Source of the DNA: Escherichia coli
Lineage (GTDB): Bacteria; Pseudomonadota; Gammaproteobacteria; Enterobacterales; Enterobacteriaceae
NCBI RefSeq assembly: GCF_003018115.1
Contig: NZ_CP027457.1
Reading direction: 5' to 3' (one strand)
Length of the DNA: 64,000 nt
Positions 25,291 to 56,831 of the stretch are shown in pieces; within the stretch, counting starts at the first letter, position 1, and each line of letters opens with the position of its first letter. Made by a program: the position numbers and the translations under genes. The notes beneath the pieces are model-generated. The model made no database searches. It saw nothing but the letters and a program-made list of their open reading frames with translations, and was not told where the DNA came from.

Positions 25291-25468
25291 TGGTGGTGAG
25301 GGAAGGATTACTCAGCGCTGCGCGCTTCGCCCTTCGGGTCGTTGCCAGCGGCAACGCTCTCTCGCTGGCGCTCAAGTCGAACCTTGGTCGAAGCTTCTCA
25401 TCCTTCCCCGCTTGGGCAGAATATTTAATTACGGATTCGTTGGGAAGTTCAGGGACTTTTGAAAGTGA
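25291..25468 (-). repeat. 178-bp tyrT-operon distal repeat unit
   Basis: begins exactly 178 bp downstream of the tyrV 3' end with a degenerate copy of the tRNA 3' 19 nt (tggtggtgagggaaggatt). Confidence 0.55.
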
Positions 25469-25553
<85 letters not shown>

Positions 25554-25587
25554 AGGGGTAATTCAAATTTTGAGGTAATGCTTGAGG

Positions 25588-25672
<85 letters not shown>

Positions 25673-54552: not shown

Positions 54553-54741
54553 TTATCCAGCCGGTATTTCGTTATTCAGGTACAGCGATACTTTGTTTAA
54601 CGGGAGACATTCACCGGAAATTTTTTGCTCGTCTCTTGCCTGATGGCAGGATTCTTTACTGGCATAAATTCCGGTAATCACTTTCTGTGGCTCACCTGTT
54701 ATCAGAAAAACCGTCATCATCAGTGTAAACGCTGAACTCAC
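54553..54741 (-). CDS. hypothetical small protein with N-terminal signal-like hydrophobic segment
   Basis: 62-aa ORF MSSAFTLMMTVFLITG...; start overlaps upstream ORF stop (ATGA). Confidence 0.45.
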   Translation of the reverse strand: MSSAFTLMMTVFLITGEPQKVITGIYASKESCHQARDEQKISGECLPLNKVSLYLNNEIPAG

Positions 54742-54926
54742 TGCTGCCCTCCGAAAATGCCAAGTTCAAGAAGGGCAATTCTGGAGAGTATGGAATTATC
54801 ATTGAGAAGATAAGGCTCATATTTTCTCATCCTGATGGCGTCCTCAGTAAACTCCCGGTTACTGAGCAGAATACCAATATTAAAACACCCTTCAGACGTA
54901 TTAACGTTTGGTAGTGACGTTTCCAT
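54738..54926 (-). CDS. hypothetical small phage protein
   Basis: 62-aa ORF translationally coupled to 54553..54741. Confidence 0.4.
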   Translation of the reverse strand: METSLPNVNTSEGCFNIGILLSNREFTEDAIRMRKYEPYLLNDNSILSRIALLELGIFGGQQ

Positions 54927-55101
54927 TATCGCGTCCTCAACAATGAATTTTGTGATGTGGTGCCTGGTGCCTCCAGGTGACGTTAACCAGTTAACAATTA
55001 ACGCCGGATTGTTAGTTGATGTCTGTTACGCCAGTAAAAGACCGCTTGTTTTAACTGTTCCGCGTGCGCTTAGCCGCATTCACCGCATCACAAAATACAC
55101 T

Positions 55102-55131
55102 TTAAAAATGGCGGATATCCATTTCCGCCGA
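55102..55131 (-). terminator. putative leftward-strand terminator within prophage early-left region
   Basis: ggcgga..tccgcc / aaatgg..ccattt inverted repeats with adjacent A-run on plus (T-run on minus). Confidence 0.4.
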
Positions 55132-55475
55132 ATCACCAGAAAAGTGATAACAGAGGTTGTTGTGGCGGTGTTGTCACTCAGGCGCATGGTCAACCTGACA
55201 ACCCGGTGCATTTTCTGGAGCAATGGAGGAAGCCCCAGCCATACTTACCGCCGCGCCATTTCGCGGATTGCCACAACCGGAAGCGCACGATCGAATTAAA
55301 TTTAACGACAAGCCTTATATTCTCGCCGTGCGCTTTCGTGTTATGCCCTGACTTTTCAGGGATATGTTCTTTCAGCAAACTGTCAGTGCCGGATTCTTAT
55401 CCGTGTCCGGCGCACGACCACACGTGACAGCGTGTTGGTCTCCATTTTTAACCCAGAACCTCTATGGAGGATAAA

Positions 55476-55778
55476 ATGCACTCTAAATCAAATCGATATT
55501 ATGTTCATGTGCAGTTATTTGAAGCAACAATGGAACAGGAGAAAAAGTTCGAGACTCTGATGCCAAATTTTAAATACTCCAGGATGATTAATGAAGGTGA
55601 CGTTGAATATAAATTGTTGCCAGGGGCATACGTTATTCAGTCAACGCTCAATTCGAATCAAATACTTGAACAAACCTTTTCTGTTGCTAATTCAGTTGGT
55701 GTTAATGCTCACATTTTTGTTTGCCCTTATGATGAAAGTGCAACCCTTTTGCCTTGTGCTGATTTTGGCACTTACTAA
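55476..55778 (+). CDS. hypothetical AT-rich accessory (moron-like) protein
   Basis: ORF 55464..55778; second ATG at 55476 has strong SD (tggaggataaaATG); 100 aa; opposite orientation to the surrounding leftward operon. Confidence 0.55.
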   Translation: MHSKSNRYYVHVQLFEATMEQEKKFETLMPNFKYSRMINEGDVEYKLLPGAYVIQSTLNSNQILEQTFSVANSVGVNAHIFVCPYDESATLLPCADFGTY

Positions 55779-56082
55779 CTAAATTTAATTTATGTTCAAG
55801 TTCGGCTATTTGCATACGTAGTGCTTTAACCATTGTTTCATGATAAATCTCACTCACTCCACCTGGGTGTGGGGTGAATTTAGGTGAATAATCTTTGTTT
55901 TCAGAACTCAGCTTCTCTTCGTACAGCTTGATAAAGGCATTACGCACATTATGGGATATATTGTCGATGGTTTCTTTTTCTACGGTACTCAGGTCAAGAG
56001 TCGCCAGTTGAGAACGAACTATATTCGCTGCCATATCCTGGAATGGTACTGGTAAATCTTTAAATTCCATCGTCAACCTCAT
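55702..56082 (-). CDS. hypothetical phage early-left protein
   Basis: 126-aa ORF whose ATG overlaps stop of the YdaF-like gene; 3' end overlaps the convergent plus-strand ORF by 77 nt. Confidence 0.5.
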   Translation of the reverse strand: MRLTMEFKDLPVPFQDMAANIVRSQLATLDLSTVEKETIDNISHNVRNAFIKLYEEKLSSENKDYSPKFTPHPGGVSEIYHETMVKALRMQIAELEHKLNLVSKCQNQHKAKGLHFHHKGKQKCEH

Positions 56083-56237
56083 CAGTCAGTGTTTCTGGCT
56101 AACCAGCGATGCGCGCCAGCTTCAGTTTTAAACGTTTTGCTTCTGGTATACGTCATCGCGGTAAACGTGCCGTCCTGGTTAGGGAACACACCGCATACCA
56201 GAGATTCGTTGTTGCCAAGATTGAGTGTATCCATGTT
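56082..56237 (-). CDS. YdaF-like small phage protein (first gene of leftward operon)
   Basis: C-terminal 51 aa of ORF 56082..56390 (MDTLNLGNNESLVCGVFPNQDGTFTAMTYTRSKTFKTEAGAHRWLARNTD) recalled as Rac YdaF-like; the upstream part of the ORF overlaps the predicted OL/pL. Confidence 0.5.
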   Translation of the reverse strand, partial: NMDTLNLGNNESLVCGVFPNQDGTFTAMTYTRSKTFKTEAGAHRWLARNTD

Positions 56238-56349
56238 GACCTCATTTGCCCTTAACGCCGGGTAGCGGAACTGTTTGCTGAGAACACCGTGCGGTGTCTT
56301 GATGGATTGTAATTTAGTTTTCTCATGGTGCTTGGTCAAGTGTTTTTGA

Positions 56350-56363
56350 TGAGAAAACTCAAC
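56350..56363. promoter_or_regulatory. putative left operator (OL), gagaaaactcaa motif
   Basis: same 12-nt motif as in the repressor–cro intergenic operator, located just downstream of the repressor gene. Confidence 0.45.
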
Positions 56364-56423
56364 ATTTAATGCAAAACAAAGCCAATACATTGAAATGTAA
56401 GGCTTTAAATTTTGTGAAGGGGG

Positions 56424-56831
56424 TTATTGATGTTTGTTACGTTTGCGAGCTTCTAGTAGCTCGGTGAATAGGCGATTAAAATTCTCAACGCGGGCACGGA
56501 GTTCGCTGATCTGTGCTTGCTGCTCTGATTTTGGAAGTGCGCGATACAATCGCAACATCTCCGACTCATCTTCCGATAAGTCTAAGGCGCTGTTGAGTGC
56601 AACTGGTGGATCTGGTGTTTTATCCTCGTCACCAAACAGTATCCAAGTTGGTGAACATTGCAATACCTCAGCCAGGCGATGCAAATTTTGCCCGCGCGGG
56701 GCTGTATGGTCGCTTTCCCATAGTGAAATTGATGAGCCAGATACACCAGCAGCTTTGCTTAAATCGTTTTGACTTAAACCAACCTGTTTGCGTCTTTCTC
56801 TAATTCGTTGACCTAAAGTTTTCTCGTTCAT
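56424..56831 (-). CDS. DicA-like HTH (XRE family) prophage repressor
   Basis: 135-aa ORF; HTH LSQNDLSKAAGVSGSSISLWE; strong resemblance to DicA incl. VLQCSPTWILFGDEDK and C-terminal RARVENFNRLFTELLEARKR. Confidence 0.88.
   Translation of the reverse strand: MNEKTLGQRIRERRKQVGLSQNDLSKAAGVSGSSISLWESDHTAPRGQNLHRLAEVLQCSPTWILFGDEDKTPDPPVALNSALDLSEDESEMLRLYRALPKSEQQAQISELRARVENFNRLFTELLEARKRNKHQ

Follow-up and report, generated by a model that had tools for sequence, protein, structure and literature searches.

A probable dicF-containing untranslated region of a Qin-type dicBF operon in an Escherichia coli prophage, with a short DicF allele and an STnc100-like dicB leader

The non-coding stretch at positions 54,927 to 55,463 of a 64,000-nucleotide (nt) window of Escherichia coli DNA (contig NZ_CP027457.1; the window being the whole stretch that was analysed) is very probably, in the minus-strand reading, the long untranslated region (UTR) that contains dicF in a Qin-type dicBF operon. 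The dicB cell-division-inhibitor operon has been known since about 1990, and the stretch is a known kind of element, explained by the dicBF system. Two of its features go beyond the textbook description. The DicF allele is short, is missed by the Rfam DicF model and lacks the module for pairing with ftsZ, and the spacer between DicF and dicB, found also between KilS and kilR, belongs to the STnc100 structural family as a diverged member.

The window matches the E. coli RefSeq record NZ_CP027462.1 at 100% identity, and annotation of the flanking genes was taken from that record. A lambdoid prophage is integrated beside ompW, and the segment concerned forms its left arm, which looks complete, with int, xis and exo present. 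On the minus strand, the order is a DicA-like helix-turn-helix (HTH) repressor, a DUF1391/YdfA-like gene, a hypothetical gene, the non-coding gap, dicB, a DUF1482 gene, a gene for an exonuclease of 823 amino acids (aa), xis and int. The genes and signals that frame the gap are the following:

56831..56424, minus strand: DicA-like HTH repressor gene (annotation)
56311..56339, minus strand: promoter-like site TTGACC-17-TAAATT between the DicA-like repressor and DUF1391 genes (consensus scan only)
56082..55702, minus strand: hypothetical gene (annotation)
54934-54938, minus strand: Shine-Dalgarno sequence of dicB, GAGGA
54738..54926, minus strand: dicB, cell-division inhibitor, 62 aa (Pfam DicB, 115.7 bits; annotated as dicB in the identical RefSeq record)

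Order and orientation of these genes match those of the K-12 Qin dicBF operon (ydfABC-dicF-dicB-ydfD). In both, a co-directional repressor is followed by small genes, by a UTR of ~500 nt that is 85–90% identical between the two, by dicB and by a DUF1482/ydfD-like gene. Pfam scores for the flanking open reading frames (ORFs) were 51.2 bits for DUF1482 and 99.6 bits for DUF1391. The window differs from K-12 in having, in place of ydfB and ydfC, another gene and a plus-strand gene of the family phrog_8894, and in that its prophage is integrated at ompW and has a complete-looking left arm. By analogy with the K-12 dicA-ydfA interval, the promoter-like site at 56311..56339 would occupy the position of PdicB.

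From about 55420 down to dicB, the minus strand is ~85–90% identical to K-12 ydfC-dicF-dicB, with a mean column identity of 78% over the whole alignment. The interval 54927–55420 forms a cassette conserved across 90 distinct homologous loci in IMG/VR. Homology stops at about 55420, and positions 55421–55463 are without homology to other dicBF loci. The structured non-coding stretch delimited as 54927–55463 by the first-pass annotation, made from the sequence of the window alone, consists for the most part of this cassette, and its segment 55421–55463 lies outside it.

The interval homologous to K-12 ydfC-dicB is also non-coding. Every tested ORF of at least 36 aa within or overlapping the region is broken by a frameshift or stop in at least half of the 90 homologous sequences, and the first 19 codons of dicB, used as a control, are intact in 90 of 90. 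Variable sites across the region did not show 3-nt periodicity in the alignment of homologues, and no coding sequence is placed in the region either by the Prokaryotic Genome Annotation Pipeline (PGAP) or in the K-12 annotation. Although ORFs of 36–154 aa are present on both strands and could be taken to indicate a small protein encoded on one of them, the tests of ORF conservation and periodicity led us to reject protein coding, and the probability left to it is practically negligible. The absence of a convincing ORF, stated in the first-pass annotation, is in this way confirmed, and the conserved protein-coding gene in homologues that would have spoken against its interpretation was looked for and not found. 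Folded as RNA, the region is more stable than shuffled sequences (z −4.05 for 526 nt and z −3.28 for the 226-nt 3′ part).

Inside the cassette, alignment with K-12 dicF locates a short DicF allele that ends at a terminator hairpin:

55104..55142, minus strand: short DicF allele, 39 nt, comprised of a single-stranded 5′ seed UUUCUGGUGAUUC, the hairpin GGCGGA-AAUGGAUA-UCCGCC and A-UUUUU (K-12 dicF alignment; pattern match at 55142)
55110..55129, minus strand: intrinsic terminator hairpin of the DicF allele, noted in the first-pass annotation as a leftward terminator, with a G+C-rich stem of 6 base pairs (bp), an 8-nt loop and a U5 tail at 55104-55108 (terminator scan, inverted repeat)

Read from 55142 to 55104, the allele is UUUCUGGUGAUUC-GGCGGAAAUGGAUAUCCGCC-AUUUUU, against UUUCUGGUGACGUUU-GGCGGUAUCAGUUUUACUCCGUGACUGCUCUGCCGCC-CUUUUU in K-12. 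Common to both are nt 1–10, the GGCGG...CCGCC terminator stem, the U-tail, and the same structured spacer downstream. The alignment includes a 2-nt gap at the seed end and a 17-nt gap inside the hairpin. In this way, the seed in the window is 2 nt shorter than in K-12 and differs at nt 11–15 (UUC vs CGUUU), while the hairpin measures 20 nt vs 37 nt and is devoid of the loop sequence CAGUUUUACUCCGUGACUGC that pairs with ftsZ. As expected for DicF (RF00039), the allele is situated ~175 nt upstream of dicB (176 nt in the window, 174 nt in K-12) and ends at a Rho-independent terminator. The GGCGGA/UCCGCC hairpin, with a fold energy of −11.1 kcal/mol and a stem that is invariant (GC/GC/CG/GC/GC) in 76 distinct homologues, is a credible intrinsic terminator. 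The number of terminators alone is not significant (5 found vs 2.1 ± 1.2 expected).

Three sequence features had been singled out in the first-pass annotation, and all of them are present, displaced by 1–3 nt. The first is the inverted repeat cgttaac (54981-54987)/ttaacg (54998-55003). The second is a double dyad, composed of GGCGGA (55110-55115)/TCCGCC (55124-55129) and AAATGG (55106-55111)/CCATTT (55119-55124) and adjoined by an A-run (55104-55108), which is the U5 tail on the minus strand, the strand also called by the terminator scan. The third is the hairpin CCCTGA-CTTT-TCAGGG at 55346-55361. The suggestion that a small RNA might reside here proved correct, the dyad being the 3′ hairpin of a DicF allele that occupies the place of DicF in K-12. 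The AAAUGG/CCAUUU pairing was considered as a regulatory alternative structure and rejected; it is treated as incidental because it is weak (−3.8 vs −11.1 kcal/mol) and disrupted in the CCGCCC forms of the allele, which are the commoner ones. Weak matches to AgvB and to the S15 leader on the DicF hairpin, 12 bits each, were judged to be due to chance.

The short allele is present in 441 of 5426 complete E. coli genomes (~8%), at 527 places and in up to three places per genome; canonical DicF was found in 3974 of the 5426. Prophages that carry the allele differ in their repressor, which is of the HTH type in the window and of the LexA family in O157:H7 TW14359. The allele sequence and its variants recur in IMG/VR, where the loop varies (AAATGGATAT, AAATGAATAT, AAACGGATAT) and the stem and U-tail remain intact. 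The short allele is recurrent, and not a private deletion. The O157:H7 genomes listed have three canonical DicF places and one short-allele place, a number that may or may not equal the “four dicF copies” cited for enterohaemorrhagic E. coli (EHEC). Faubladier and Bouché are said to have reported, in 1994, dicF-like sequences in Rac and other prophages.

Pairing capacity of the two alleles was compared by duplex prediction. In K-12, the 3′ region of DicF pairs with the ribosome-binding site of ftsZ and the 5′ end pairs with xylR (PMC5069750). Prediction on whole small RNAs (sRNAs) over-extends the pairings, and it was repeated with seeds and loops only. The K-12 seed UUUCUGGUGACGUUU, of which nt 1–10 are identical in the window and nt 11–15 differ, pairs with xylR at +9..+21 (−15.8 kcal/mol, z −3.8). 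With the short seed this predicted site is lost, and contiguous pairing is reduced from ~11 to ~7 bp, as estimated by eye. The K-12 loop gave −22.3 kcal/mol (z −4.3) on the start region of pykA and −22.0 kcal/mol (z −2.2) on manX; on the start region of ftsZ (−22..+1), it gave −16.9 kcal/mol with z −0.6, which is no better than shuffles. On the ftsZ, pykA and manX targets, the short loop reached only −2.7 to −7.3 kcal/mol. By these predictions, the short allele is without the ftsZ, pykA and manX sites and without the xylR site at +9..+21, for which K-12 DicF uses an extension of the seed that is missing here. If the allele is active, inhibition of division through ftsZ should therefore not be expected of it, and its target set should be different or narrower.

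The segment between the DicF terminator and dicB is a structured domain of its own, with the following parts:

54946..55108, minus strand: spacer and leader of dicB, structured and STnc100-like, with three hairpins inside a closing helix (Rfam STnc100, model R1, compensatory changes)
55081..55099, minus strand: 5′ arm of the closing helix, beginning a few nt beyond the U-tail of DicF, candidate RNase III site (inverted repeat, RNAalifold)
~54980-55006, minus strand: 11-bp hairpin of the inverted repeat cgttaac...ttaacg (fold and RNAalifold; helix 4, changes on both sides in 5 of 10 pairs)
54963..54977, minus strand: hairpin CCUGG-AGGCA-CCAGG (helix 5), the most conserved motif in common with STnc100 (aligned to the STnc100 consensus CCGGGAGGCACCCGG)
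54944..54962, minus strand: 3′ arm of the closing helix, directly preceding the ribosome-binding site of dicB (inverted repeat, RNAalifold; helix 1, changes on both sides in 5 of 10 pairs)

The Rfam STnc100 model matches the spacer over its full length (1–206) with 33.0 bits and E 1.3e-4, a score below the Rfam gathering threshold of 47 bits; the K-12 homologue scores 34.4 bits. In the reverse direction, the covariance model R1, built from 24 diverse spacers, matches canonical STnc100 copies at 43–59 bits over the full model length. The arms of the closing helix were recognized as an inverted repeat of 19 nt, 89% complementary and separated by 118 nt, and RNAalifold on spacers returned a closing helix of 19 pairs in which one-sided changes keep pairing. 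Among close homologues, covariation was uninformative (a double change in 1 of 39 pairs in 88 spacers), and the test became informative only after canonical STnc100 copies had been added through model R1. In the resulting joint alignment of spacers and canonical STnc100, 96.3% of cells are paired, vs 34–40% in slid-partner controls, and changes on both sides occur in 14 of 33 pairs. The covariation score is 0.278 vs 0.113 for shuffles, with none of 500 shuffles reaching 0.278. In K-12 Rac, two pairs of the cgttaac hairpin are changed on both sides (G-C to U-A and U-A to G-C) and the stem is kept.

Sequence conservation of the spacer is high. The bin 54968-54992 has 100% identity across the 90 homologues, and per-site variability is 0.037 in the spacer vs 0.046–0.088 at dicB codon positions. 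The model of the spacer also hits the opposite strand (54935-55097, plus strand, in the window, and other loci alike) at 24–30 bits, because the domain consists largely of palindromes. Strand calls from covariance scores alone are therefore unsafe, and the strand is decided by G-U pairs. Several invariant G-U pairs are compatible only with a minus-strand RNA, and those of the cgttaac hairpin likewise fit only the minus strand.

That the DicF-dicB spacer is a diverged relative of the STnc100 RNA family is shown by the covariance models, which hit reciprocally, and by the compensatory changes. With STnc100 (RF02076)/PasD it shares four helices, among them the closing helix, the GGUGAAU...GCG motif and the hairpin UCACCnGGAGGCACCnGGCACC. 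The two differ in location: canonical copies reside in the late region by tRNAs, a methylase or stx/stx2 (PMC12370729) and are described as stand-alone sRNAs, whereas the domain in the window stands between DicF and dicB in the early-left operon and forms the 5′ leader of dicB. The two canonical copies checked against Rfam, scoring 165 and 136 bits, are both in contig L003, where they form, together with a third and weak one (30 bits), a tandem within ~700 nt (351-1028, minus strand). They adjoin three tRNAs (1107-1353) and a DNA methylase gene (1403-2452) of the late region; the same contig also has a dicF-dicB cassette.

Processing of K-12 DicF is by RNase E at the 5′ end, and by termination or RNase III at the 3′ end, which gives DicF of 53 nt and 72 nt (PMC5069750; PMC9438474). 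Coordinate arithmetic on the K-12 locus (L001) puts nt 72 inside the homologous 5′ arm of the closing helix. Because this end of the RNase III-dependent K-12 DicF lies in the homologous arm, the closing helix is likely an RNase III site that would separate DicF from the dicB mRNA.

A survey of the position ahead of the spacer was anchored on the spacer, and not on DicF. This position, referred to here as the slot, holds several different seeds and hairpins, and the gene behind the spacer varies as well (dicB, a kilR-like “MIAHHFG...” ORF, or a “MLNVAIENQ...” ORF). Where the slot allele has the canonical hairpin, the Rfam DicF model still recognizes it, at 61 bits. At least five types of hairpin and seed alleles, for example GTGTGTAGTCTTGGCGGCATCAGTTTTTTCTTGAAGTTCGGCTGATGTCCGCC, match no Rfam family at gathering score (IMG/VR loci L139, L155, L127/L150, L006 and L161). 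In K-12 Rac (L199), the annotated sRNA KilS (2906-3003, minus strand) is located 175 nt upstream of kilR, and the spacer is at 2754-2910 (minus strand). KilS is a northern-verified sRNA of 98 nt with its own promoter reported (PMC8175672). As in the window, the sRNA ends at a GGCGG...CCGCC hairpin and U-tail, and the same STnc100-like spacer stands between it and a small FtsZ-inhibitor gene. In contrast, neither the body of the sRNA nor the sequence upstream is related to its counterpart in the window, and the downstream gene is kilR, not dicB.

Upstream of DicF, the UTR continues for about 280 nt:

55143..55420, minus strand: conserved 5′ part of the UTR (precursor RNA), ~85–90% identical to the K-12 Qin ydfC-dicF interval
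~55389-55412, minus strand: predicted hairpin GCCGGA...UCCGGC
55346-55361, minus strand: predicted hairpin CCCUGAAAAGUCAGGG
~55252-55267, minus strand: predicted hairpin CCGCG-AAAUGG-CGCGG

Mean identity in this part is 0.73–0.99 per 25-nt bin over the 90 homologues. Speculatively, a small predicted hairpin would put the 5′ end of DicF into an A/U-rich loop, which would suit RNase E. The first-pass annotation had also considered a tL-type terminator that needs antitermination. What stands of this proposal is an intrinsic terminator in the early-left operon ahead of dicB, exo, xis and int; the need for antitermination found no backing, as there is no boxA-like motif at 54900-56500 on either strand (boxB was not searched) and no N-like gene by Pfam among the five flanking ORFs scanned, the upstream ones being DUF1391 and phrog_6937-like. 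The arrangement resembles lambda tL with N/nut in having an intrinsic terminator within a repressor-controlled leftward early operon, upstream of recombination and integration genes. It differs from it in being without boxA or a recognised N gene, and in that an sRNA has its 3′ end at the terminator.

The same observations raise the question of whether 55420..55143 could be a cis-acting antiterminator like HK022 put RNA, providing N-independent read-through of the DicF terminator to dicB, exo, xis and int. A strong terminator in the middle of an operon, with distal genes needed for recombination and excision, would accommodate such an element, and so would the missing boxA and N-like family and the conservation of 280 nt that are non-coding and predicted to be highly structured. 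However, this segment is similar to no Rfam family, and no covariation backs any structure in it. Furthermore, both termination and read-through with RNase III processing are described for K-12 (PMC5069750; PMC9438474), where partial read-through alone explains expression of dicB (PMC5069750), and Rac has KilS and the same spacer behind an unrelated upstream sequence. A put-like function is accordingly held to be very unlikely.

Assignment of the cassette to the UTR of a Qin-type dicBF operon, with its DicF allele, is carried by what the analysis showed directly: homology and synteny, non-coding status, the anatomy of the terminator, the distribution of the allele and the conserved structure of the spacer. 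Several observations weigh against it. The Rfam DicF model had no hit at E ≤ 1 in 4 kb of the window, nor at E ≤ 10 in 81 nt (its gathering threshold is 48 bits, and K-12 DicF scores 76.7 bits). The ftsZ-complementary 3′ region of DicF (about nt 23–45) is absent in the window, where it corresponds to the 17-nt alignment gap, and no pairing with the ftsZ ribosome-binding site is predicted. Conservation of the 10-nt seed is no independent evidence because the flanking UTR is equally conserved. The plus strand folds about equally well, so that thermodynamics assigns no strand. For the spacer, the joint alignment was fitted to model R1, and most double changes come from one lineage of ~5 related canonical STnc100 copies, which leaves few independent events. 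Compensatory changes in the upstream 280 nt amount to 0 of 56 pairs in 76 UTRs, the pairs being invariant or changed on one side. Promoter, termination efficiency and processing sites at the locus are put forward by homology. Finally, the short allele may be only a terminator remnant.

According to this last possibility, the short DicF would be a decayed form that acts as an intra-operon terminator and has no trans-acting sRNA activity, its seed hitch-hiking on a conserved UTR. The missing Rfam hit and the equal conservation of the flanking UTR agree with decay, as does the loss or weakening, in duplex predictions, of all four validated K-12 target interactions. Such a remnant would not be expected, on the other hand, to be as widespread as the allele is, across 441 genomes, 527 places and different prophage backgrounds, or to vary in the loop while stem and U-tail stay intact. 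The allele has kept the minimal design of an Hfq-type sRNA (single-stranded 5′ seed, GC hairpin, U-tail), and the other occupants of the slot, DicF and KilS, are verified sRNAs (PMC5069750, PMC8175672). Decay to a bare terminator is possible, and we consider it rather doubtful.

A broader proposal, also tentative, is that small division-inhibitor genes, among them dicB and kilR, are preceded by a modular sRNA slot, in which an exchangeable seed and loop stand ahead of an STnc100-type platform cleavable by RNase III. The short allele would then be a live, re-targeted minimal DicF without the pairing module for ftsZ, pykA and manX, and the platform would be reused late as STnc100 and PasD.

On the other side of the cassette lies a plus-strand gene:

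55476..55778, plus strand: phrog_8894 gene, 100 aa from ATG 55476, with GGAGG at 55466-55470 (E 6.6e-34, residues 10–100 on profile 2–93 of 94)

This gene lacks PGAP annotation in the identical RefSeq record. It is outside the conserved cassette and overlaps the 3′ end of the minus-strand hypothetical gene by 77 nt. Only the N-terminal ~74 aa of the hypothetical gene product match phage families (phrog_6937), and for this reason the phrog_8894 gene looks like an inserted moron that altered the C-terminus of its neighbour. In the search for independent contexts, IMG/VR gave the same prophage type only, and tblastn against GenBank phages gave nothing.

A promoter of the adjacent plus-strand gene was among the functions proposed in the first-pass annotation. 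This could hold only for the last ~45 nt (55421-55463), located before the phrog_8894 gene, and only weak promoter-like matches were found there. In this alternative, 55421-55475 would be the promoter and 5′ leader of the phrog_8894 gene, a moron between the early-left genes and the DicF cassette. The ORF belongs to a real phage family and has a strong GGAGG 5 nt before ATG 55476. Homology to other dicBF loci stops at ~55420, and the left arm has no plus-strand gene upstream, so the gene would need a promoter of its own. Reading the sequence, GTGACA (55425-55430) followed after 17 nt by TTTAAC is a weak sigma-70-like match, but without the conserved final T of the −10 element. The only match from the scan, TTAACC-18-TAAAAT (55448-55477), would start transcription downstream of the start codon, and the relatives, all from the same prophage type, offer no comparative test. 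The alternative, which explains at most 45–55 of the 537 nt and is compatible with the dicBF assignment of the remainder, is considered possible but rather unlikely.

Elsewhere in the window, other RNAs were detected by Rfam. In the right arm of the prophage, at gathering score, isrK (51 bits) is directly followed by C4 antisense RNA (69 bits) at 60495-60679 (plus strand), and sok antitoxin RNA (117 bits) lies beside hokD at 61388-61562 (plus strand). The host chromosome outside the prophage has, at 8560-9160 (plus strand) and 25291-25672 (minus strand), two rdlD antitoxin RNAs (84 and 92 bits) and an RtT RNA (131 bits) beside two tRNAs.

Taken by analogy with K-12, expression of the locus would proceed as follows. 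Transcription would start at the repressor-controlled early-left promoter, probably at ~56311-56339, cross the DUF1391 and hypothetical genes and enter the non-coding cassette of ~500 nt (55420..54927). The 39-nt DicF allele (55142..55104) would result from intrinsic termination at the hairpin and U-tail that it contains, its 5′ end probably cut by RNase E in an A/U-rich stretch between CAC and UUUUCUGG. Polymerases that read through would transcribe the four-helix domain of ~160 nt (55108..54946), in which the predicted closing helix of ~19 bp extends from immediately behind the U-tail to shortly before the ribosome-binding site of dicB. RNase III would likely cut this helix, and in this way separate a 3′-extended DicF, as for the 72-nt DicF of K-12, from the dicB-DUF1482-exo-xis-int mRNA. 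Processing by the two RNases, Hfq dependence and target loss of the short allele are what we infer from K-12 and from predictions.

For annotation, the result means that the Rfam DicF model overlooks an allele at the DicF locus in ~8% of the complete E. coli genomes surveyed (441 of 5426). Counts of dicF copies in EHEC, and designs of their deletions, may include or omit a copy with a different pairing capacity. If the slot proposal is true, functions would be divided among DicF paralogues in lysogens, O157:H7 among them. The orphan STnc100/PasD family gains a testable role, as the leader of a toxic gene and a platform for processing by RNase III, and the variable slot before the spacer presents a compact case of modular sRNA evolution in prophages.

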